Shown one piece after another: positions 8,277-33,695 of a stretch of 64,000 nt of DNA. Numbering within the stretch: position 1 is the stretch's first letter; every line of letters starts with the position of its first letter. The DNA is from Myxococcales bacterium (GTDB taxonomy: Bacteria; Myxococcota_A; UBA9042): positions 1,287 through 65,286 of the forward strand of contig CANMNA010000002.1 in assembly GCA_947499075.1 (NCBI GenBank). Direction: 5' to 3'. The translations under genes were made by a program, and so were the position numbers. The notes beneath the pieces are model-generated. The model worked only from the letters and a program-made list of their open reading frames with translations, ran no database searches and had not been told where the DNA came from.

Positions 8277-9329
8277 TCAGTCGGCGCGCAGACCGGCGAC
8301 CACGTCGATGACGGGGACGCCAGCGCCACCGCATACGTTGACCGCGGCGCGCACCTGCGCCAAAAAGGCTGCGGCATCAATGGCAGCGCCGGGCTGACGC
8401 CACGGGTTGCTGACCACGGCGCGAACAGGCACGGCGTGGCTGGCGACCACGGTGATGCCTTGCCGATCGGCCGCAGCCCAGCCGGCTTGCGACAACAGAA
8501 TTCGGCTGCTGTCGCGGACGAGCACGCTTTTGCTGCGACATCGTGCCAAAACAGTGTCAGTCAGCGCCCCACTGACGACGTAGGTGGCGGCTGATTCGGG
8601 CTGATCGCCCGCAAGGCCAACCAGCAGCGCACGCAAAGTCGGCACAGCCAAGGCCACTGCGTCTTGATCGCTGGGGGCAGCAATGGCCCCGACCGCGACG
8701 ACGATGGCCTGAGCCACCTGCGGATGCGCCGCCATCTGGCGGTGATAGGCGCCATCGACAAGCACCAGCGGCACCTGGGCAGCCAGCGCGGCAATGGCGG
8801 CAAGCAGGTCCTGGCGGTGCCCGATGCCGCACAGTTGGACGTGCAGCGGGGCCCGCGCCCGCGCCAGCACCGTGGGGCCCAGCGCAGTCGCGATCGGCAG
8901 GGTCGCCACGATTTGCAGCGCCCGGCCCGCTGCCGTGGCGAACGGCAGCGCCGTCACCATCCATCCGTCTTTTTCGAGCCTGACCTGCGGCTTGGATGCG
9001 TCGGACCAGGCGTCGCGCGCCTCGCCGTCCAGACCGACTGACACCAGGCCTACGGCCATCGCTTCGACCGAGGCCGCAGCACACAGCGCCAGCAGCGCCG
9101 TGGTCTTGCCGGCATTCTTGCCGGCGCCAATGACAGCCACCCGGCGCACGCCCGCGACCAGCACCGCTTGGCCCAGCAGGCGGCTGCCGGCAGCACTTGG
9201 ATGCTTGGGCAGATCGACTTCAGCGGGCAGATCGAGTTTAGCGGGCAGATCGAGTTTAGCGGGCAGAGCGACTTCAGCGGGCAGAGCGACTTCAGCGGGC
9301 AGAGCGACTTCAGCGGGCAGATCAACCAT
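8277..9329 (-). CDS. P-loop NTPase of unknown function (GAGKNAGKTT motif; CbiA/DRTGG-like N-terminus?). The start is uncertain.
   Basis: The Walker A motif is VIGAGKNAGKTTALLAL. The ATG ORF would encode an N-terminal (LPAEVA)n repeat from the 18-bp tandem array. Alternative GTG starts at 9164, 9149 or 9140 would leave the array intergenic. Confidence 0.4.
   Translation of the reverse strand: MVDLPAEVALPAEVALPAEVALPAKLDLPAKLDLPAEVDLPKHPSAAGSRLLGQAVLVAGVRRVAVIGAGKNAGKTTALLALCAAASVEAMAVGLVSVGLDGEARDAWSDASKPQVRLEKDGWMVTALPFATAAGRALQIVATLPIATALGPTVLARARAPLHVQLCGIGHRQDLLAAIAALAAQVPLVLVDGAYHRQMAAHPQVAQAIVVAVGAIAAPSDQDAVALAVPTLRALLVGLAGDQPESAATYVVSGALTDTVLARCRSKSVLVRDSSRILLSQAGWAAADRQGITVVASHAVPVRAVVSNPWRQPGAAIDAAAFLAQVRAAVNVCGGAGVPVIDVVAGLRAD
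9207..9327. repeat. Tandem repeat of 18 bp x ~6.7 (gggcagatcgacttcagc and variants)
   Basis: Direct reading shows two unit variants (atcgagttt / agcgacttc) arranged in blocks. Confidence 0.9.
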
Positions 9330-9416
9330 CGCCGCCAGACGCTACCACAAACACAGCATTGCGCTATGCTGCGGGCATGCCGGCTGCCCGGCGCGCCGAC
9401 CATGCCCAGCCCATCG

Positions 9417-9500
9417 CCCGCTATCACAGTGCCCGCTATCACAGTGCCCGCCGTCGCAGTGCCCGCCGTCGCAGTGCCCGCCGTCGCAGTGCCCGTGTCG
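9417..9500. repeat. Tandem repeat of 15 bp x ~5.6 (cccgctatcacagtg x2, cccgccgtcgcagtg x3)
   Basis: Direct reading. It lies 90 bp from the 18-bp array, between the divergent P-loop and ABC genes. Confidence 0.9.
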
Positions 9501-9512
9501 TCTGGTCGCCAG

Positions 9513-11324
9513 ATGGTCGCGGCTTTTGCCCAGCGCTACGCCTTGCGCTACCTGCCGTACTACCTGGCTGGCCTGATTTTTTTGGCCCTGACCAACTACT
9601 TGACGGTGGCCATTCCGCGCCTGCAAAAAGAAGTGTTTGACGAGCTCGCCGGGGCCCGCAATGCCGAAGTGGTCCACACCAACGCGCTGTGGATTGCGGT
9701 GGCGGCGGTGGCGGTCATCGTGGTGCGCTGGCTGTCGCGCATCCTGTTCTTCAACCCTGGACGCACCATCGAGTTTCGCCTGCGCAACGACATGCTGTCC
9801 AAGCTTTTGGCCATGTCGCCGGCATTTTACCGCACGTGGCCGATCGGCGACTTGATGGCCCGCGCCACCGACGATGCCGCGTTTGTGCGCGCGCTGGTGG
9901 GGTTTGCCGTCATCATGGCCCTAAACATGGTCATCGCCGCCAGCATGGCGCTGTGGCAGATGTGGCACACCGACGCTTGGCTGACGGTGTACTGCGTGCT
10001 GCCGGCGCTGGCGGCAGTCTTGATCCTGCGCAAGGGCGTGATGTGGGCGATGGCCTACATCAAGCAGACCCAAGTGGCGCTGGGCAAAGTCAGCGCGTCG
10101 GTACTTGAAGCGTACAAAGGCATCAGCGTGGTCCAGGGCGCGGCCGCCGAGCAAGCATTTCTGGCCCGTTTCGATGCGGCCAATAGCAACTACACCCAAC
10201 TGAACCTGCGGCAGGCTGCGATTCGGACATTCTTGATGCCGGTGGTGGGCGTGGTCGGCAACCTGTGTATCTTCTTGCTGTTGTGGCAAGGCGGCCAGCA
10301 TGTGGTGGCGCGCCAGATTACGCTGGGCGACATGGCGGCCTACGCCAGCTACGTCGCGGTGCTCGTGGGTGCGCTGGCTTCGGGGGGATGGGTCGTCGGC
10401 GTGCTGCAGCGCGGCATGGTCTCGCTGCAGCGCTGCTGGGACATCGCTGAACTGCAACCTGATTTGGGCGATGGCCCCGAGCAGATGCCCCAGCGGCCGG
10501 GCGGCGTCCACCTGCGGGTCAACAACCTGACGGTGTTTCAGCCGGGCGCTGCCTGCGATACCTTGCCGGTGCTGCGCGACGTCAGTTTTGACCTGCCGCC
10601 CGGCCACGTGCTGGGCGTGTATGGCGCGGTGGGCTCCGGCAAGTCGACGCTGGTGGCGGCGCTGGCGCGGATGCTGCCCGTGGCGTCCGGCAGCATCACG
10701 CTCGACGGGGTGGCGCTGCCTGACGTGCGCGACGCCGACCTGCGGCGTGCGGTGGCGGTGGTTCCCCAAGAACCCTTTCTGTTTTCGCGCAGCCTCTGCG
10801 ACAACATTGGGTTTGACGATGCGGCCGCCGATGTCGACTTGGCGCGGGTGCAGGCAGCGGCCGACGACGCCCAGCTGACCGCCGAAATCGCGCGCATGCC
10901 GCAGGGCTTGGCGACGGTGGTCGGCGAGCGCGGCTTGCTGCTTTCAGGCGGCCAGCGCCAGCGGGCGCAGCTGGCCCGGGCGCTGTACCGCGGCGGCCGC
11001 TTGTTGATCCTCGATGACGTGCTCTCGGCGGTCGACCATGAGACAGAAGAGCGCTTGCTGGCGGTCATCCGCCGACGGGTGGCAGCGCAAGGCATGTCGG
11101 CGGTCGTCATCTCGCACCGGCTATCGGCGCTGGCCCAAGCCGATGAAATCCTGGTGTTGGGCGACCCGGCATCGGACCAGCGCGGTACGGTGGTCCAGCG
11201 CGGCAGCCATGGGCAATTGCTGGCACAGGCCGGCCTGTACGCCCAAGTCTGGGCGGCGCAAAAGCAGGCAGAGTCGGGTCTGGATCAGCCCAATTCTGAG
11301 GTCTTGTCGGCGGCTGCGGCCTAA
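9513..11324 (+). CDS. Fused permease/ATPase ABC exporter (MsbA/ABCB-like)
   Basis: An N-terminal 6-TM domain is followed by an NBD with Walker A GAVGSGKST, the signature LSGGQRQRAQLARAL and Walker B LLILDD. The ATG at 9513 sits just before TM1. Longer starts at 9168 or 9361 would translate the repeat arrays. Confidence 0.8.
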   Translation: MVAAFAQRYALRYLPYYLAGLIFLALTNYLTVAIPRLQKEVFDELAGARNAEVVHTNALWIAVAAVAVIVVRWLSRILFFNPGRTIEFRLRNDMLSKLLAMSPAFYRTWPIGDLMARATDDAAFVRALVGFAVIMALNMVIAASMALWQMWHTDAWLTVYCVLPALAAVLILRKGVMWAMAYIKQTQVALGKVSASVLEAYKGISVVQGAAAEQAFLARFDAANSNYTQLNLRQAAIRTFLMPVVGVVGNLCIFLLLWQGGQHVVARQITLGDMAAYASYVAVLVGALASGGWVVGVLQRGMVSLQRCWDIAELQPDLGDGPEQMPQRPGGVHLRVNNLTVFQPGAACDTLPVLRDVSFDLPPGHVLGVYGAVGSGKSTLVAALARMLPVASGSITLDGVALPDVRDADLRRAVAVVPQEPFLFSRSLCDNIGFDDAAADVDLARVQAAADDAQLTAEIARMPQGLATVVGERGLLLSGGQRQRAQLARALYRGGRLLILDDVLSAVDHETEERLLAVIRRRVAAQGMSAVVISHRLSALAQADEILVLGDPASDQRGTVVQRGSHGQLLAQAGLYAQVWAAQKQAESGLDQPNSEVLSAAAA

Positions 11325-26364: not shown

Positions 26365-27294
26365 CTATTGTGGGGGCGCGGTGAACCATGTCAGCGCGGC
26401 GGTCACGGCCAGCGGCCGCGCCAGACCACCACTGCTGTCGTTCTTGGCGTCGTCAAAGGCCGGGTAAAACAGGTGGTGGTAATCCAGGCGCAGGGCGAAG
26501 CGCTCCGACAGGTAAAACTGCAGGTAGCCGCCGACGTTACCGGCAGCGTCGATCCGCATGATGCCGGCCGGAAACTGCTGCGTGGTGACCTTGGTCGAGA
26601 CCGCGCCCACGCCAAAGCACAGCGCCATGTCGAACTCACCCAGCTTGGTGCCGAAAAAGCCAATCTTGCCGTGCAGCAAGTTCCAGTCGATGCCTGCCGA
26701 GGTGTAACCGACCAAAGTTTGCGGCAAGCGCACTTGCAGCTCATAGCCCTCTGGCCGATTGCTCTCCAGCTTGGTGCGCAGCGAGGTCGCCTTGTCGTAG
26801 GTGTAGACGGCGTGGACGTTTAAGGCCAAGTCCTCTGAAAAGTAGTAGTTGTAGCCCAAGCCGCCGGAGATGTAGGTCCAGAAGTCGTCGTTGGGGACCA
26901 CGCCGGCGAGCACCGACAGGCCGTGGCGACCTTCCTTGACCACCTCGCGCTTCTGCACGACCCGAATGTCGCGGCGCTTGGCCCAATCCATCCGCGAGCC
27001 CGGCGGGACCAAGTCGTCGCCAATGCCGTACACGTCGACCTCGCCACCGCTGGCGCCGCCCAAATCCGGCATCGCTTCCTTGGTCTTTTTGGCCTTGGGC
27101 TCCGGTTTCGGCTGGGGCTTGGGCTCTGGCTTGGGTTCTTCGGCGGGTGGCGCCTCTGCCGGCACATCTGCCTGGGGCTCGGCTGGCTTGGCATCGCCGC
27201 CAGCTTCCTGGGCCAGCACAGGCAGGGCCAATCCCAGAGCGCCCGCCACCAGCGATAGCGCCATCGTAGTCCAAATCTTCGTACTATTTCGCAT
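26365..27294 (-). CDS. Outer-membrane beta-barrel protein (GltB/NfsB-like), paralogue of 27331..28065
   Basis: A signal peptide is followed by a Pro/Glu/Lys-rich linker and a beta-barrel region. The LHGKIGFFGTKLGEFDMALCFGVGA block is shared with the neighbouring gene. Confidence 0.55.
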   Translation of the reverse strand: MRNSTKIWTTMALSLVAGALGLALPVLAQEAGGDAKPAEPQADVPAEAPPAEEPKPEPKPQPKPEPKAKKTKEAMPDLGGASGGEVDVYGIGDDLVPPGSRMDWAKRRDIRVVQKREVVKEGRHGLSVLAGVVPNDDFWTYISGGLGYNYYFSEDLALNVHAVYTYDKATSLRTKLESNRPEGYELQVRLPQTLVGYTSAGIDWNLLHGKIGFFGTKLGEFDMALCFGVGAVSTKVTTQQFPAGIMRIDAAGNVGGYLQFYLSERFALRLDYHHLFYPAFDDAKNDSSGGLARPLAVTAALTWFTAPPQ

Positions 27295-27330: not shown

Positions 27331-28065
27331 TTATTTGCTCAGGAAGGCCAAGCCGGCGGTGAACTGGACGGGCGCCAAGAACGTGATGCTCTCTTGGGGC
27401 TTGTAGATGTACTGCTTGTAGTCGATGCGGATGTTGAGAAACCGCGTCAAGTAGAAGCGAAAGCCGAGGCCCCAGCTGCCGCCGGCTTTGAGTCCGTTGA
27501 CCGGCGTCTTGTTGCCCAGCGACTCATCGATGTCGGCATTGATAAACGCCGCGCCGACCGAGCAATTCATGTCAAACGAACTGATTTTTTTGTCGAAAAT
27601 GCCGATTTTGCCGTGCAGCGGGCTGTAGGCGACGCCCAGCGTGCTGACCCAATGCAGCTTGGGGGCGTGCTGGGCGCCAATCGTCAGCGAGGCCGGCTCT
27701 TTGCCGGGACCGGCTGGCACGTGGCCCAAGAAGTTCAAGATCTTGGATTCTGACGACAACAGGTACGAGAAGTCGCCTTCCAGGGCCACCGTGTCGGTCA
27801 AGAAGAACCCGACCCGGCCGCCGATCGACTTGAACAGGTAGAAATTGTCGTTGGGAATGGCGCCACCGTGGATGGTGCCCTCGACGCCGTGCTTGCGCTC
27901 AAACAGCGGGTTGGTCAGCGACGGCACCGCCAATTCGGTGTTCCAGTACTTCTGCAGCTCGCGGTCGATCGGCTCATTGTCGGCGGCTGTGGCCGACAAT
28001 GGCACGGCCAACGTGGCAACAGTTGCCAGCGCGGACCACCAAGCGGCGATTGTCTTGAGTTGCAT
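27331..28065 (-). CDS. Outer-membrane beta-barrel protein (GltA/NfsA-like)
   Basis: The ATG at 28065 is preceded by GGAGAA. The signal peptide is MQLKTIAAWWSALATVATLAVPLSATA. The LHGKIGIFDKKISSFDMNCSVGAA block is paralogous to the adjacent gene. The C-terminus is AFLSK. Confidence 0.55.
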   Translation of the reverse strand: MQLKTIAAWWSALATVATLAVPLSATAADNEPIDRELQKYWNTELAVPSLTNPLFERKHGVEGTIHGGAIPNDNFYLFKSIGGRVGFFLTDTVALEGDFSYLLSSESKILNFLGHVPAGPGKEPASLTIGAQHAPKLHWVSTLGVAYSPLHGKIGIFDKKISSFDMNCSVGAAFINADIDESLGNKTPVNGLKAGGSWGLGFRFYLTRFLNIRIDYKQYIYKPQESITFLAPVQFTAGLAFLSK

Positions 28066-28112
28066 GATCTTCTCCAAACGGGTCGCTGCGTTGTCGCAGG
28101 AGGATGCCGGCA

Positions 28113-30098
28113 TCACTTGCACAGACCTTCGCACTTGGCCTCGCAGGTGCCCTTGCAGCACACGCTCTTGCCGTTGGGGCCGCACGGCAGGCCGTCGGGC
28201 GCAGGCGCGTTGCGGCACAGCCCGCCGGGCGTGCAGGAGTTGAGGCCGCACTCTTTGGCGCCCGCATCGCAGTCGGTGTCGACGGCGCAGGCGCGGCGGA
28301 ACGTCAGGCGGGTGTCGCGCTCGTTGTCGAGCTCTTCAAACCGGTAGTCGATCTCGGCGGTGCCGACAAAAATGTTCTCCAGGCTCTGAAACAGGTTGTT
28401 TTGATATTTCATGCGGCCGCGCATCGCCCGCATTTGGCCAATCGGCTCGCTCTTGACGTTGTTGTCGACAAAGCCGACGCGCCAAGTGCCGGCCAAGGCA
28501 TAGCGCACCTTGAGGATGGCGCGGCTCATGCTGTCGCTCCACTTCTCCGCGTCGCTGCGGTTAAACGAGGCGGTGCTGATCAGCTGGTAGGTGCCTTCGG
28601 ACCGGCACGCCAACTCTTGCAGGGTCTCGTCGGGCTCAGTGTGGCCTTTGGACTGAATCTGGATGACGTGGATATGAATGGGAAAGCCGTCTTGGGCCAT
28701 TTTGTGCAGCAGTTCTTTGTAGCGCACGGTCGTGAACGAGCACTCTTTGCGGCACTGGCCGCCGGCCTTGAACGGCTGGACGAATGTGAAATTGTCGTTG
28801 GGTGTGCAGGTGTCCGGACCGTCGGTTAGCAGCACAATGTGCTTGGCGTTGCCCTTGGTTTCAGGGTGGACAGGCCCGGCGGGGAACGCCTTGAGGAAGT
28901 CGTAGCCTGCTTGGATGGCCTCATACACCGGCGATCGGCCGTTGCCTTCGTACTTGGCCAAGGCTTCGATGCCGTACTTGTTGAAGGCTTTTTTCTGGGC
29001 ATTGGCGCCGTAGCAAAAGCTCAACTGGTCGTTGGGCGCACGATTGGGTACGGTTGCCTTGGTTTGGTCTGGGCGCGGCCCGCAGCGAAAATTTGAGCCG
29101 GCCTTGCTGCTGGTGATGCAGTCGGTGTCGCTGGTGCAGGCCAAGCCTTCGACGATGGTATAGCTGCCCGCACCATCGTCGGCTTGGCAGACCACATCAT
29201 CGGTGCACGCGGCGTAGACCTGCTCTTTTTCGGAGTAGCCCAGCGCGACAACGCGGTCCTGGGCGTTGAGCGAGTCGATGAGCTGGCGCGCGCCATCGAC
29301 GAGCACGTAGCGCGGATCTGAGGCGCACTCAATGAAGTCGCCGGGCGGCTTCAAGGTGCCCGGGGTGTCTTCAGCGAAGTTGCTGGCGTTCTTGCACAGC
29401 GGCTGATCGGTGGCCATAAAGCCCGACACTGAGCCGGTGTGGTCGACGATCACAGCGACGTTTTGGAAGGTATCGGACTTGTCCTTGTCGCAGCGCAGGG
29501 CATCGCGCCGGAAATTCACTGCTTTGGCCTTCTGGGAGGACTTGGTGCCGCCGCCCGCGCATCCGCCGCTGCCTTGGGTACCGGCGTGCTGCTCGTAACA
29601 ATCGAGCTCAAGGGTAAAGTGACCGGGGGCGACGGTGCTGAACTCTTTGCTGGTCGACAGCGACTGGAATTCGATGCGCTCGCCCTCCTTGATGCCGAAG
29701 TCCTTCTCGTTTGCGCACTTGGGCTTGTTCTTGCGGTTGTTGGGGTCAGACGACACCAAGTTGACGGTCAACTCCATGCCATTGGGATCGGCCTCAGTCT
29801 GGCCGGGCAACAGGTCGCCCGCCTCGTCGCGCAGCGGCGCACCGCACACGCGCTTGATCGCGCCGGTCTGGGTGTTGATGATCGCCGGAAACGCCGACAC
29901 CACCTGCACAGTCTGAAACGCGATCTGGTCCAAACTAAACCGGGCGGAGTAATCACAGGAGGCTAAGCCGCCGGTGATCGTCCAGACCGTGGCCGCGGTG
30001 CCAGCCAGCATCGCCCAAGGCAAAACTACGCGACGGGCGCCAGTGGCGGCGGCCGACTGGGTGCGGGCGGCCGAAGATTTGGGATGCAATTGTGCCAT
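28113..30098 (-). CDS. Cysteine-rich lipoprotein with a von Willebrand factor A domain (CglB-like adhesin?)
   Basis: The lipobox is LASC after a hydrophobic segment. A VWA core (VAVIVDHTGS ... HIVLLTDGPD) is present and more than 40 Cys are spread through the protein. It is the first gene of the Glt/Nfs-like operon. The start is ambiguous (ATG 30098, ATG 30011 or TTG 30125). Confidence 0.55.
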   Translation of the reverse strand: MAQLHPKSSAARTQSAAATGARRVVLPWAMLAGTAATVWTITGGLASCDYSARFSLDQIAFQTVQVVSAFPAIINTQTGAIKRVCGAPLRDEAGDLLPGQTEADPNGMELTVNLVSSDPNNRKNKPKCANEKDFGIKEGERIEFQSLSTSKEFSTVAPGHFTLELDCYEQHAGTQGSGGCAGGGTKSSQKAKAVNFRRDALRCDKDKSDTFQNVAVIVDHTGSVSGFMATDQPLCKNASNFAEDTPGTLKPPGDFIECASDPRYVLVDGARQLIDSLNAQDRVVALGYSEKEQVYAACTDDVVCQADDGAGSYTIVEGLACTSDTDCITSSKAGSNFRCGPRPDQTKATVPNRAPNDQLSFCYGANAQKKAFNKYGIEALAKYEGNGRSPVYEAIQAGYDFLKAFPAGPVHPETKGNAKHIVLLTDGPDTCTPNDNFTFVQPFKAGGQCRKECSFTTVRYKELLHKMAQDGFPIHIHVIQIQSKGHTEPDETLQELACRSEGTYQLISTASFNRSDAEKWSDSMSRAILKVRYALAGTWRVGFVDNNVKSEPIGQMRAMRGRMKYQNNLFQSLENIFVGTAEIDYRFEELDNERDTRLTFRRACAVDTDCDAGAKECGLNSCTPGGLCRNAPAPDGLPCGPNGKSVCCKGTCEAKCEGLCK

Positions 30099-30296
30099 GT
30101 CGCAACTCAGTTGGCGGCGGGTCAACCCGGCAGGTTCTTCAACCGTGTCGTGCAGTTCCAGCCAGTTCGGGCCCGGTGGGGCGTCACACCGCTACAGCGC
30201 AACCGGCAGTACCGGCGCACAAAAACGGGCCCGTAATGTTTCCCGCAAGGGGGCGGCAAGTCAAGCACAGGTCGACAGCTCCAGTGGGACCACCCA

Positions 30297-30446
30297 AATT
30301 CCCCACAGAAATCAACCGATGCCCCCGATTTGAGATGCAGATCAAGGAACAAGGAGCTGAAAGAGCGAGGCGTACTCTGGTACGCCGCAGCGAGAGAAGC
30401 GACGCAGTGACGCAGAGATGTGCTCAAAGCGGGGGATCGCGGGCCA
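30297..30446 (+). repeat. 150-bp dispersed repeat, copy 1 (upstream of uvrA)
   Basis: It is ~93% identical to 33452..33601 and contains a GGCGTAC-tctg-GTACGCC hairpin. It produces homologous spurious ORFs on the minus strand. Confidence 0.9.
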
Positions 30447-30517
30447 GGCCAGCACTGGACATGCGTTCAGGTCTGACATAGGCTGCGGCGCCGCGCCGGT
30501 GCGCAAATGCCTGTGCC

Positions 30518-33430
30518 ATGCCTGCTTCACCCCCAGCCGACCCACAAATTGTGCCTGCCGACACCTCAAGTGCCACGGGCATTGCGCCCCAGCCCAAGGA
30601 CTGGCTGACCGTGACGGGCGCTGCGCAGCACAACCTGCAGCACGTCAGCCTGCGTTTGCCCAAGAACAAGCTGCTGGTGTTTTCGGGGCCATCGGGCTCG
30701 GGCAAGTCGTCGCTGGCGTTTGACACGCTGTACGCAGAGGGCCAGCGCCGCTACGTCGAGTCGTTGTCGGCTTATGCCCGGCAGTTTCTGGGCCAGCTGG
30801 ACAAGCCGATCTACGACAAGATCTCGGGCCTGTCGCCGACCATTGCCATCGAGCAGAAGTCGGCCGGCAGCAACCCGCGGTCAACCGTGGGCACGGTGAC
30901 TGAGATCGCGGACTACCTGCGGGTGCTGTACGCACGGATCGGCGTGCAGCACTGCCCAACCTGCGATGCCACGGTGGGCAGCCAAGAGCCCACGCAAATC
31001 GTCCGCGAAATCCTAACATTGCCGCCAGGTGCGCGGATCTTGGTGCTGGCGCCCCTGTGCCGGCAGCGCAAGGGCACGTTTAAGGAAGAGTTTGCCCAAG
31101 CGCTGGCTGATGGCTTCGTGCGGGTCCGCCTGGGCGGTCAAGTACAAGAAATCACAGCGGGCATGGCCCTTGACAAGCACGGCAAGCACGACATCGATCT
31201 GGTGATCGATCGCGCGACCGTGCAACCCGAGGAGGCGCGGCGGCTGCAGGACAGTGTGGAGCAGGCCCTCAAGCGCGGTGGCGGCAAGTGCATCGTCGCA
31301 GTGGCGAGCACCGAGCCAGCGCCGCCGTGGACCGAAAAATCCTTCAGCGAAGAGCGGTTCTGCGACACTTGCAACCGCAGTTTTGGCGAATTGAGCCCGC
31401 TGGCGTTCTCGTTCAACAGCCCGGTCGGGGCCTGTGAAGCGTGCAAGGGCTTGGGCTTTGCCATGCAGGTCGATCCGGCGCTGGTCGTGCCCGATCCAGC
31501 GCTGACGCTGCGGCAGGGTGCCGTGGTGCCGTGGAAGGGCGTAGCCGATCTGGGCGGCATGACGTTTAAGATCTTGGAGAGCATGGCCAAGTCCCAAGGC
31601 ATTGCCCTGGATACGCCGTGGCGCGAGCTACCCGAGGCCGATCGTGAAAAAGTGTTGTACGGCAGCGACGGCCGCTTTCAGATCAGCTGGTCGGGTCAGC
31701 ACGGCCAAGGGACGTGGGGCGCACGCTTTGAGGGCGTGGTACCGCAGCTGCAGCGGCGGTGGAAGGACACCAAGAGCCAGGACCAGCGCGATTTTTACCA
31801 GGGCTTTTTCGTGCAGGCAGACTGCGCGGAGTGCAAGGGCGTGCGCTTGCGGGCCGATAGCCGCGCGGTGCGGGTGGCCGGGGTGTCGCTGCCGGAGCTG
31901 GGCGGTTGGTCGATCGCCCGGGCCCGGGCTTTTCTGGCAGACATGCCACTTGTCGGCGCAGCAGCCCAAATTGCCTTAGAGGTGCAAAAAGAGCTGCTGT
32001 CGCGGTTGGGCTTTCTGGAGCAAGTGGGCCTGGAGTACCTGACTTTGGATCGCGGCTCGGCCACGCTGTCGGGCGGCGAGGCCCAGCGCATTCGGCTGGC
32101 CAGCCAAGTCGGCTCTGAGTTGACCGGCGTGTTGTACATTCTGGACGAACCTTCGATTGGGCTACACCCGCGGGATAGCCGCCGGCTGGTCCAGACCCTT
32201 TTGCGCCTGCGCGATCTCGGCAACACCGTGCTGGTGGTCGAGCACGACGAAGACACCCTGCGCAGCGCCGATTACCTGGTCGATTTTGGGCCGGGCGCGG
32301 GTCGCCTTGGCGGCCACGTGGTGGCCCAAGGCACGCCGCAGGCGGTGATGGCCGATGTGGCATCGCGGACCGGTGGCTACCTCAGCGGGCGGCTGCAGAT
32401 CGCGCGACCGGCCCAGCGGCGGTCGCCCAAGGGATGGCTGGAGATCGCGCGCGCGACGAGCCACAACCTGCGCGACTTGTCGCTGCGGATGCCGATCGGG
32501 TGCATGGTGGCGGTCACTGGTGTGTCGGGCGCCGGCAAGTCCACGCTGGTTCACGACGTGCTGCTGCCCAACCTGCACGGTGTGCTCAACCGCTCGCGCG
32601 ATGGGTGGCTGCGCTGCCAATCGATCACCGGACTTGCGGCGTTCGACAAAGTCATCGAGGTCGATCAGCAACCGATCGGCCGCACGCCACGCAGCAACCC
32701 GGCGACCTACACCAAGGCTTGGGATCTGGTCCGGCAGGTGTTTGCCGAGCTACCCGAAGCCAGGGTCGCGGGTTATGGCCCGGGGCGCTTCAGCTTTAAC
32801 GTCAAGGGTGGTCGCTGCGAGCACTGCCAAGGCGATGGCGTGCTGCAGATCGAGATGCACTTTCTGGCCGATGTCTACGTGCCATGCGAGGTGTGCCAGA
32901 GCCGCCGCTTCAACGCCGCGACGCTGGCGGTGACCTACAAGGGCAAGTCGATCGCCGATGTATTGGAGATGACGATCGACGAGGCCGCCGAACTGTTCAA
33001 GGCCCACCCTGCAATTCTCAAGGTACTGTCGACGCTGCAGCAAGTCGGCCTGGGCTACATGGCACTGGGTCAATCGGCCACGACGCTGTCGGGCGGCGAA
33101 GCCCAGCGGGTCAAGCTCGCGCGCGAGCTGGCGCGGCCCGGAACCGGCAAGACCCTGTATATGTTTGACGAGCCTACGACTGGGCTGCACTACGACGACG
33201 TGGCCAAGCTGCTCGGCGTGCTCCAACGGCTGACTGACCGGGGCAACACCGTGCTGGTCATTGAGCACAACCTCGATGTGGTGCGCGCGGCCGACTGGGT
33301 CATCGATCTGGGCCCAGAAGGCGGCGGCGGCGGCGGCAAGCTCGTCGCCGAGGGCACACCGGAGCAAGTCGCAGGCGTGGCTGCCAGCCACACTGGGCAG
33401 GCCTTGGCCCAACACGCTGGCGGGCGGTGA
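30518..33430 (+). CDS. uvrA: Excinuclease ABC subunit A
   Basis: Two ABC ATPase modules (GPSGSGKSS; GVSGAGKST) and LSGGE signatures are present, with zinc-finger Cys pairs. Length is 970 aa. Confidence 0.9.
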   Translation: MPASPPADPQIVPADTSSATGIAPQPKDWLTVTGAAQHNLQHVSLRLPKNKLLVFSGPSGSGKSSLAFDTLYAEGQRRYVESLSAYARQFLGQLDKPIYDKISGLSPTIAIEQKSAGSNPRSTVGTVTEIADYLRVLYARIGVQHCPTCDATVGSQEPTQIVREILTLPPGARILVLAPLCRQRKGTFKEEFAQALADGFVRVRLGGQVQEITAGMALDKHGKHDIDLVIDRATVQPEEARRLQDSVEQALKRGGGKCIVAVASTEPAPPWTEKSFSEERFCDTCNRSFGELSPLAFSFNSPVGACEACKGLGFAMQVDPALVVPDPALTLRQGAVVPWKGVADLGGMTFKILESMAKSQGIALDTPWRELPEADREKVLYGSDGRFQISWSGQHGQGTWGARFEGVVPQLQRRWKDTKSQDQRDFYQGFFVQADCAECKGVRLRADSRAVRVAGVSLPELGGWSIARARAFLADMPLVGAAAQIALEVQKELLSRLGFLEQVGLEYLTLDRGSATLSGGEAQRIRLASQVGSELTGVLYILDEPSIGLHPRDSRRLVQTLLRLRDLGNTVLVVEHDEDTLRSADYLVDFGPGAGRLGGHVVAQGTPQAVMADVASRTGGYLSGRLQIARPAQRRSPKGWLEIARATSHNLRDLSLRMPIGCMVAVTGVSGAGKSTLVHDVLLPNLHGVLNRSRDGWLRCQSITGLAAFDKVIEVDQQPIGRTPRSNPATYTKAWDLVRQVFAELPEARVAGYGPGRFSFNVKGGRCEHCQGDGVLQIEMHFLADVYVPCEVCQSRRFNAATLAVTYKGKSIADVLEMTIDEAAELFKAHPAILKVLSTLQQVGLGYMALGQSATTLSGGEAQRVKLARELARPGTGKTLYMFDEPTTGLHYDDVAKLLGVLQRLTDRGNTVLVIEHNLDVVRAADWVIDLGPEGGGGGGKLVAEGTPEQVAGVAASHTGQALAQHAGGR

Positions 33431-33451
33431 AGTCTTGGGGCGCCGTTTCCC

Positions 33452-33601
33452 CAATTCCCCACAGAAATCTCCCGCGGCCTCCGATTTGAGATGCAGATCA
33501 AGGAACAAGGAGCTGAAAGAGCGAGGCGTACTCAGGTACGCCGCAGCGAGACAAGCGACGCAGTGACGCAGAGATGCGCTCAAAGTGGGGGATCGCGGGC
33601 C
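33452..33601 (+). repeat. 150-bp dispersed repeat, copy 2 (22 nt downstream of the uvrA stop)
   Basis: It is in direct orientation with copy 1 and has the same hairpin. Confidence 0.9.
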
Positions 33602-33695
33602 ATTTGCCCATTGTCCGCCGCCCATTGTCCCGCTACACTACTGGCCTCCGCGCTGCCCACTTGGGTACTCACTTTGCGCGACTACAGGACCCTCC

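Follow-up and report, generated by a model that had tools for sequence, protein, structure and literature searches.

The described elements against which the repeats considered here can be set are of several kinds. Among the bacterial MITEs, the Correia elements of Neisseria and the pneumococcal RUP duplicate TA, and the 127-bp ERIC or IRU repeats of enterobacteria are intergenic imperfect palindromes. The elements moved by Y1 transposases (IS200/IS605 and RAYTs) make no target duplication and insert beside a fixed 4-5-nt target. Finally, the insertion sequences of the IS1380 family are flanked by 4-5-bp direct repeats generated at insertion (PMC12116815).

The repeats that bracket uvrA in the window (the whole 64-kb stretch of DNA that was analyzed) can be compared with each of these, and are very probably two independent, fairly old insertions of a ~150-nt non-autonomous transposable element (MITE). 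By repeat search and blastn there are exactly two copies in the window, A and B, lying on the same strand at 30293-30446 and 33449-33602 with 93.5% identity over 154 nt. When the limits are set against the other family members, the element proper is 150 nt long; over this length the copies show 10 differences (93.3% identity), with sharp borders and flanks that are unrelated apart from a trailing GCCA. The ~93% identical same-strand pair around uvrA reported in the original prediction is thus real, with its borders in need of adjustment: the last 4 nt that it assigned to each copy are this GCCA, which is flank, and the element ends at 30442 and 33598. Likewise, the bracketing of uvrA stands, and the distances to the gene, earlier given as 71 and 22 nt, become the 75 and 18 nt listed among the features below:

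30289..30292, no strand: ACCA, the 5′ flank of copy A; degraded target-site duplication, a 3/4 match with 30443-30446
30293..30442, + strand: copy A of the very probable MITE, 150 nt, in the divergent intergenic region upstream of uvrA, ending 75 nt before the ATG
30293..30304, + strand: left terminal motif of copy A, CCCAAATTCCCC, resembling IS1380-family terminal inverted repeats
30316..30343, + strand: 5′ arm of the basal stem of copy A (subterminal inverted repeat, helix 1)
30369..30386, + strand: apical hairpin of copy A, GGCGTAC-TCTG-GTACGCC
30415..30442, + strand: 3′ arm of the basal stem of copy A, which is also its right end (...CAAAGCGGGGGATCGCGG)
30443..30446, no strand: GCCA, the 3′ flank of copy A; second half of the degraded target-site duplication
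30455..30471, + strand: probable LexA (SOS) box, CTGGACATGCGTTCAGG, which lies outside the element, 12 nt past the end of copy A and 47 nt short of the uvrA ATG
30518..33430, + strand: uvrA, 970 aa (Pfam UvrA_inter, UvrA_DNA-bind and ABC_tran), bracketed by the two copies
33449..33598, + strand: copy B of the very probable MITE, 150 nt, starting 18 nt past the uvrA stop, at a synteny breakpoint
33525..33542, + strand: apical hairpin of copy B, GGCGTAC-TCAG-GTACGCC

The GCCA that follows both copies might be read as the trace of a local segmental duplication or gene conversion, with one copy having been made from the other together with some flank. This is scarcely conceivable: only these 4 nt of flank are shared, the other flank is unrelated, and each copy is closer to the consensus of five copies from the window's lineage (96.7% for A and B each) than to its partner. 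Both A and B carry 5 private substitutions relative to that consensus, the five copies being otherwise 97-99% alike, which indicates that neither was copied from the other; the derivation of B from A with a 4-nt read-through fails on the same count of distances. Moreover, in place of a lone pair duplicated along with its flanks, which the original prediction had named as the outcome that would undo it, we recovered a family of ~27 insertions. Its suggestion of a dispersed intergenic repeat family proved to be correct.

These insertions are spread over three lineages: the window's own (ENA ERZ272802xx), which has at least 8 copies, the Lake Baikal MAG "Myxococcales bacterium Baikal-deep-G136" and a third relative. 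A search with the exact core gave 9 matches on 9 contigs of one Myxococcales MAG, and a profile search of the 65 kb of those contigs returned ~15 copies. The copies sit between genes, in both sense and antisense orientation relative to their neighbors. They come in forms of 100, 150, 174, 206 and 259 nt with a modular interior, the size variants arising at fixed internal sites through a module of 24-34 nt that follows GATGC, one of 22 nt that follows the apical hairpin, or an internal deletion. The ends are conserved (5′ CCCAAATTCCCCAYCGAAATTCCCCGCGGCCCCCGATTTGRGATGC ... GCGCYCAAAGCGGGGGATCGCGG 3′, the right end also being given as ...GGGGGATCGCGG), and an internal block, GATGCAGATCAAGGAACAAGGAGC, which carries two GGA motifs, is invariant. 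We found no coding capacity: open frames differ between lineages in the 3′ half and none is conserved, a small ORF from an internal ATG being discarded on this ground, and six-frame protein searches returned only fusions of element frames to unrelated genes. The 174-nt form was considered as a fuller palindrome and rejected, as its extra module folds on itself; the fragments with only a 5′ end (at loci L006 and L007b) were similarly dismissed as the ends of a longer parent, their continuations being unrelated to each other or to the other sequences compared. Beyond these lineages, the JGI metagenomes scanned with the conserved 3′ 20-mer yielded no more than two matches, both by chance and in a phage-like gene; viral contigs scanned with the core and the 3′ end yielded nothing or this chance match again, and blastn against the PLSDB plasmids gave nothing relevant. 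Literature searches on the terminal sequences and on myxobacterial MITEs likewise yielded nothing relevant, and a full-text search found no MITE report for this freshwater Myxococcota group. The family is apparently undescribed so far, its host being an uncultured freshwater Myxococcota lineage.

The evidence for transposition comes from the flanks. A perfect 4-bp target-site duplication at the exact register is present in 13 of 21 copies, and a further 3 of the 21 match at 3/4 positions, leaving copy B (flanks GTTT/GCCA) and four others without a duplication. Shifted registers give 0-2 such matches, and 10,000 permutations of the flanks give a mean of 0.62 and a maximum of 5. The duplications never extend to 5 bp, and the 13 perfect ones are 13 different tetramers with no conserved target motif. 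Moreover, at one locus (L014) the element lies within an ISKra4-family transposase gene, between two copies of the duplicated CTAC; removal of the element and one CTAC restores the ORF, with a match to NF033572 running across the site (E=8e-40). At another (L017), a gene for a group-II-intron-type reverse transcriptase is truncated by the element. Conversely, an empty site is seen in a relative (L022) with an 87% identical UvrA and three shared upstream genes, where the alignment continues on both sides of the position of copy A; two further relatives (L023 and L030) likewise have no element upstream of uvrA.

Most of the element forms a long imperfect hairpin. The original prediction noted the central palindrome GGCGTAC-N4-GTACGCC, which is indeed present in both window copies, and stated that terminal inverted repeats are lacking, with the implication that the copies are not transposon-like. 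This needs correcting: besides the 4-bp duplications, the element has subterminal inverted repeats with ~28-nt arms, of which 99% of cells are paired across 12 copies and the 3′ arm reaches the right end. Outside the hairpin, the left end has 23 extra nucleotides with the motif AAATTCCCC occurring twice. The inversion is weak at the very ends: over the outermost 12 nt, the complementary strand of the right end, CCGCGATCCCCC, agrees with the left end at 8/12 positions. The covariation in the hairpin that had been proposed as a check is borne out by the same 12 copies, in which 92% of the hairpin is paired, against 34-48% when the partners are slid, and six stem pairs show changes on both sides. 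These compensatory changes, along with the invariant block, could also reflect a function beyond transposition.

The original prediction also raised a structured UTR element or an sRNA gene, and we accordingly considered whether the repeats are copied for the function of a + strand RNA, such as a 5′/3′ UTR regulator, a terminator or stabilizer, or an sRNA. Both window copies are oriented as uvrA and fold far better as RNA on the + strand (z of -3.5 and -3.9) than on the − strand (z of -0.3 and +0.7), and the compensatory stem changes and the block with two GGA motifs would suit such a role. Against this, the copies from the Baikal MAG fold about equally well on both strands, family members are both sense and antisense to genes, and ~9 inner-stem pairs are broken in the window's lineage, though those copies are young. 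Promoter-like or terminator-like sites were not found in or beside the copies, and Rfam returned no match anywhere in the window at the gathering score, nor on the elements even at E<=1. Given also that the 4-bp duplications and the insertions inside genes show spread by transposition, we regard this explanation as highly improbable. Ordinary transposon insertion accounts for the repeats around uvrA, and neither an RNA nor a regulatory hypothesis is needed any longer.

With respect to the mobilizing enzyme, the 4-bp direct duplications on either side of the insertions, which vary in sequence, point to a DDE transposase, which would act in trans through 4-bp staggered cuts; selection would then limit the survivors to intergenic DNA and other mobile elements. 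The long hairpin with its conserved apical stem-loop and covariation, together with the poor inverted repeats at the very ends, could alternatively suggest a REP/REPIN or IS200/IS605-derived element, whose movement as single-stranded DNA would depend on a Y1 (HUH) transposase recognizing the hairpin. However, exact duplications of variable sequence flank most copies, and there is no Y1 transposase among the called genes of the examined loci, making this exceedingly improbable. Returning to a DDE transposase, the 4-bp duplication and the terminal motif would make the IS1380 family its likeliest source, a tentative assignment to which we give a little less than even weight. The 5′ 14-mer of the element agrees at 11/14 positions with the ISEcp1 IRR, at 11/14 with the left repeat of IS1247 and at 10/14 with its right repeat; over four reference ends the range is 9-11/14, the IS1380 family having been chosen after seeing the data. 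As a chance level, 8 of the 127,972 14-mers of the window reach 11/14 (6e-5), one of them being the element's own end. The 3′ end matches IS1380 ends at 7-8/14 at most, and for the IS1247-like reference, the motif that matches may have a subterminal, not a terminal, position. In the 279 kb of the window and related loci, a small fraction of the genomes, tblastn with the ISEcp1 and IS1247 transposases gave no match, and neither an autonomous parent with these ends nor any longer element was seen. The ISKra4-type insertion sequence at L014 was rejected as a parent, its ends being unlike those of the element, which is merely inserted in its gene; the reverse transcriptase in P0002 was also dropped as a functional partner, its gene being truncated by the element in antisense orientation.

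At the uvrA locus itself, the probable LexA box is the only match in the window, at <=1 mismatch, to the Myxococcus xanthus consensus CTRHAMRYBYGTTCAGS (PMC9705874), and the box is retained in L022, a relative free of the element. Copy A inserted ~12 nt upstream of this probable LexA-box/core-promoter region, which most likely leaves it out of the uvrA mRNA. Copy B has lost its duplication, probably via recombination with another copy, and gene order breaks at its position. The orthologues of uvrA in the relatives are 87-80% identical and the upstream synteny is conserved in all of them; uvrA is in its ancestral position, on which ground a composite transposon carrying it was rejected. That uvrA is bracketed by two like-oriented copies is most readily explained by coincidence, the genome being dense with the element. 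In another lineage, this intergenic region upstream of uvrA holds an independent insertion of a member from a different subfamily, oriented the opposite way; with insertions upstream of uvrA in two lineages, pure chance fits less comfortably than targeting or selection.

This second insertion, along with the proximity of copy A to the sole SOS-box match of the window, raises the prospect of a MITE that has been co-opted, such that copy A modulates the SOS-controlled uvrA. Additionally or instead, the direct repeats, with a longest identical stretch of 53 nt in the alignment of A and B, might let uvrA be deleted or amplified, giving rise to mutator variants. Such co-option, which would add to the MITE explanation rather than replace it, strikes us as quite unlikely: the nearest relatives do without any element, deletion or amplification junctions were not seen, the loss of uvrA is normally costly, and the decay of both copies (with the duplication degraded in A and absent in B) suggests neutral ageing. 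The recombination substrates of the original prediction describe a possible consequence of the element and not its identity. It is very unlikely that the family as a whole goes beyond a passive parasite and serves DNA-repair genes as a mobile module for regulation or recombination, the independent insertions upstream of uvrA in two lineages then being due to targeting of, or selection at, its promoter; if so, populations could lose or amplify nucleotide-excision repair through the direct pair around uvrA. In a related and also very unlikely reading, the invariant two-GGA block would be bound by a protein, as RNA or DNA, and would be spread through the genome as such a site. On the preferred reading as plain MITE insertions, the position of copy A beside the probable LexA box still provides a small, testable lead on uvrA regulation in the window's lineage.

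More generally, the element is an ordinary kind of genome parasite, a small non-coding mobile DNA, and our analysis defines a MITE family for an uncultured freshwater Myxococcota lineage known from Lake Baikal and from metagenomes of related lakes. Short-read assemblies are broken by it: at copy B, a public ENA contig (L001) switches to a third copy whose 3′ flank differs, the behavior expected of assemblers at a repeat. It also misleads gene callers, which have fused spurious element peptides onto real genes in seven database proteins; the homologous spurious ORFs noted in the original prediction are, in the window, simply open frames crossing the repeat. The element marks at least one point of rearrangement, and its insertions provide strain-level markers.

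In comparison with the nearest of the known systems, the ends of the IS1380 members ISEcp1 and IS1247 start with CC and carry CCNNNATTYCCC, as do those of the element, and its 5′ 14-mer is nearer to the ISEcp1 IRR and the IS1247 left repeat than those two are to each other (7-9/14). In contrast to them, the element has no transposase gene and its 3′ end matches poorly; hence, the link is a hypothesis on the mobilizing enzyme rather than a demonstrated derivation and, if true, would provide a clear example of a MITE tied to the IS1380 family. With the Correia elements and RUP it shares small size (here 100-260 nt), lack of coding capacity, a dispersed and mostly intergenic distribution, inverted-repeat arms forming a long hairpin, short target-site duplications, presence or absence between relatives, and nesting in other mobile elements. 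It differs in having no sequence similarity to them, in its variable 4-bp duplication, in the extra 23 nt beyond the hairpin at the left end and in its uncultured freshwater Myxococcota host. The ERIC or IRU elements resemble it as intergenic imperfect palindromes of ~130-150 nt that occur in either orientation and have size variants generated by indels at fixed internal sites, with no sequence relationship between the two. Unlike them, the element described here is demonstrably mobile, given its clear target-site duplications and its young, near-identical copies.

Exactly two copies of the repeat were recovered from the 64-kb window by repeat search and blastn, lying on the same strand on either side of uvrA. 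They are 93.5% identical, with an abrupt end of homology at both borders in the alignment, in agreement with the original prediction of two same-strand, ~93% identical copies flanking this gene. The features concerned are:

30293-30446, + strand: repeat copy A (element proper, 30293-30442)
30369-30386: palindrome GGCGTAC-N4-GTACGCC in copy A
30518-33430: uvrA, the ORF between the copies (Pfam UvrA_inter, UvrA_DNA-bind, ABC_tran)
33449-33602, + strand: repeat copy B (element proper, 33449-33598)
33525-33542: the same palindrome in copy B

As was also claimed, there is no transposase or reverse transcriptase among the ten genes neighboring the repeats. The window (G+C 63.5%) is nearly identical to the ENA metagenome contig ERZ27280213 k141_3432700 (locus L001). 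Elsewhere, it contains two in-frame tandem arrays (9207-9323, 18 nt x 6.5; 9416-9495, 15 nt x 5.3) within a 760-aa ORF (9042-11324).

The repeats belong to a dispersed family and are not a local duplication. Scanning one genome per species with an exact 21-mer of the invariant core gave matches in one MAG, “Myxococcales bacterium Baikal-deep-G136”, where they fall on nine contigs, and one chance match in Mesorhizobium; a profile made from full-length copies detected ~15 complete or fragmentary copies in these Baikal contigs (65 kb), as many as four of them within a single 7-kb locus. A protein-database search with all of the element's open frames concatenated as a single query recovered seven “proteins”, each the product of gene calling across a copy. 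Their contigs carry five more copies of the window lineage (L017, L018, L020 and two in L019) and two Baikal-like ones (L014 and L021), with L015 and L016 bearing the same insertion as L014. L024, from a relative at 80% UvrA identity, adds two further copies. Altogether, about 27 distinct insertions were seen, nearly all between genes, and the “dispersed intergenic repeat family” of the original prediction was right. Among the 150-nt copies of the window lineage, identity is 97-99%; copies A and B show 96.7% identity to the lineage consensus and 93.3% to one another, and the five private substitutions in each mark them as separate, relatively old insertions. In the database proteins P0001 (AAA ATPase, L019), P0005 (TonB-dependent receptor, L018) and P0006 (amidohydrolase, L020), 35-50 residues are spurious translations of the element, into which gene calling had prolonged the ORFs. 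A second UvrA-like protein, of 1832 aa, is encoded in this metagenome lineage (L019 1-521), and the UvrA search also gave many double-length homologues (1400-1690 aa), mostly from Planctomycetota.

With borders taken from the alignment, the 4 nt before and the 4 nt after the element were compared in 21 copies. The tetramers are identical in 13 of these (GCCT, GTGC, GTAG, CGGA, CTAC, CAGT, CTGT, CTTG, TCTA, GCTT, TTTA, TAAA and ATCG) and agree at 3 of 4 positions in three more, including copy A (ACCA/GCCA). Any shifted register gave 0-2 matches, and 10,000 permutations of the flanks among copies averaged 0.62 matches and never exceeded 5; none of the copies compared has a 5-bp duplication. At L014, the element interrupts a gene and has CTAC on both sides: removing it along with one CTAC yields a continuous ORF (...RMRYAWLREQGMLIGSGAMES...), which aligns with the ISKra4-family transposase model through the junction and as far as the model end (E=8e-40). 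This transposase gene (L014 144-1960, also L015 and L016) is already split into two ORFs (194 and 326 aa), aside from the interruption by the element, and the same disrupted copy is present in three different samples. At L017 714-2150, a gene for a group-II-intron-type reverse transcriptase (RVT_1) is truncated, with an antisense element replacing its C-terminus. All other copies are intergenic and occur in both orientations relative to the neighboring genes.

The alignments reveal conserved 5′ (CCCAAATTCCCCAYCGAAATTCCCCGCGGCCCCCGATTTGRGATGC) and 3′ (GCGCYCAAAGCGGGGGATCGCGG) ends, an invariant internal block (GATGCAGATCAAGGAACAAGGAGC) and a modular interior: CTGTCGCTCG-like repeats make up a module of 24-34 nt, placed after GATGC, in both lineages, and further variants include a module of 22 nt that follows the apical hairpin, an internally deleted form 100 nt long and a subfamily whose interior differs and reaches 259 nt. 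The last 28 nt pair with nucleotides 24-51, and the long imperfect hairpin is completed by an inner stem and an apical hairpin of 7 bp. Over 12 copies, standard pairs make up 92% of pair cells, versus 34-48% with partners slid by 1-3 columns, and six pairs show both-sided changes, including a basal-stem switch from G-C to A-U between the lineages. About nine inner-stem pairs are broken in the window lineage, with GA-rich sequence on both arms; for this reason the window copies fold well as RNA on the + strand only, whereas those from Baikal fold on either strand. Each of the seven window-lineage copies has, instead of the Baikal inner stem, a GA-rich near-mirror repeat (GAAAGAGCGAG ... GCGAGAGAAGCG; e.g., window 30359-30369 and 30390-30402). 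These copies are young despite the broken pairs, so spread does not require this portion of the stem. The reading of the repeats as an RNA element was not supported, and the element matches no Rfam family. Two copies, each near a contig end (L006 251-346 and L007 5732-5821), break off at the apical hairpin or beside it, which could reflect palindrome-centered deletion or an artefact of assembly.

The loci of the closest UvrA orthologues were taken with their flanks and compared to the window. Three genes upstream of uvrA are common to all these loci, and synteny with the window starts near 26365 and breaks off at the uvrA stop. The orthologous locus L022 (UvrA 87% identical) aligns on both sides of the copy A position, including ACTGGACATNCGTTCAG just downstream, without the element; L023 and L030 have no element there either. 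In L024 (3817-3962, - strand) and at the same position in L025 (UvrA 80% identical), a member of the divergent subfamily occupies the intergenic region upstream of uvrA, 38 nt before the ATG; it has the opposite orientation and a probable CTGC duplication and was thus inserted independently of copy A. Such recurrent insertion could stem from chance, target preference or selection. The adjacent minus-strand genes at 26365-27294 and 27331-28251 are paralogues (71% identical over a 69-nt stretch), one with a weak outer-membrane beta-barrel match, and the pair is kept upstream of uvrA in all relatives.

Downstream of uvrA, the gene order differs in every lineage:

Window: 334-aa ORF and a DsbA-like gene
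L022: two tRNA-Ser genes, then dnaX-recR
L023, L024, L030: convergent PALP-CBS gene

Copy B sits exactly where the gene order departs from all relatives and has no target-site duplication (GTTT/GCCA); we infer that it took part in recombination between element copies. Beyond chance, we offer no explanation for the 3′ flank GCCA being common to copies A and B. A role as recombination substrates, another option originally raised, is at most a side effect. L001 tracks the window to copy B and then continues in another copy, which shows three differences within the element and has an unrelated 3′ flank; hence, at least one further copy exists in the source genome, and short-read assembly is disrupted by the repeat. 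This chimeric contig end (L001 13030-13103, equivalent to window 33550-33620) carries the other copy's 3′ flank (GTTCGGCC...), where the contig stops.

A scan of the whole window with the M. xanthus SOS-box consensus CTRHAMRYBYGTTCAGS (PMC9705874) gave a single match, CTGGACATGCGTTCAGG (30455-30471; one mismatch, 0.18 expected by chance), which lies 47 nt before uvrA and is probably a LexA (SOS) box. The end of copy A is 12 nt upstream of this site. It is kept in L022 and missing before uvrA in L023 and L024; uvrA of M. xanthus itself is reported to be without an SOS box (PMC9705874). A weak -35/-10 pair, TGGACA-N17-TAGGCT, which is our own reading and lies below the promoter-scan threshold, overlaps the box in the window and L022; if this is the promoter, copy A would be just outside the transcript.

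As for mobilization, the IS1380 family is the best candidate, because it makes 4-5-bp direct repeats on insertion (PMC12116815) and its ends look like the 5′ end of the element. Annotated plasmid copies supplied the reference ends:

ISEcp1: CCTAGATTCTACGT and CCTAAATTCCACGT
IS1247: CCCACATTTCCCAA and CCTGCATTCCCCAA

For a family picked after the data had been seen, the element's 5′ end (CCCAAATTCCCCAT) matches the two ISEcp1 ends at 9 and 11 of 14 positions and those of IS1247 at 11 and 10, the motif in the IS1247-like reference copy possibly sitting a few bases inside the true end. Matches of at least 11 of 14 occur in 8 of the 127,972 window 14-mers, one being the element's own end; agreement at the 3′ end is poor (7-8 of 14). 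In the 279 kb examined, no longer parent element with the same ends was found, two IS1380-family transposases used as tblastn queries gave no matches, and two 5′-only fragments run on into unrelated DNA.

No match to the element was found in PLSDB plasmids or IMG/VR, no real match in JGI metagenomes and no report of it in the literature searched. It is very probably a bacterial MITE, of a family without precedent in that literature, agreeing with the working definition on all tested points except that its terminal repeats are imperfect and its parent was not found. In form, it is closest to ERIC, sharing with it imperfect palindromes with fixed-site size variants; however, it has clear target duplications, which ERIC-type palindromes do not.
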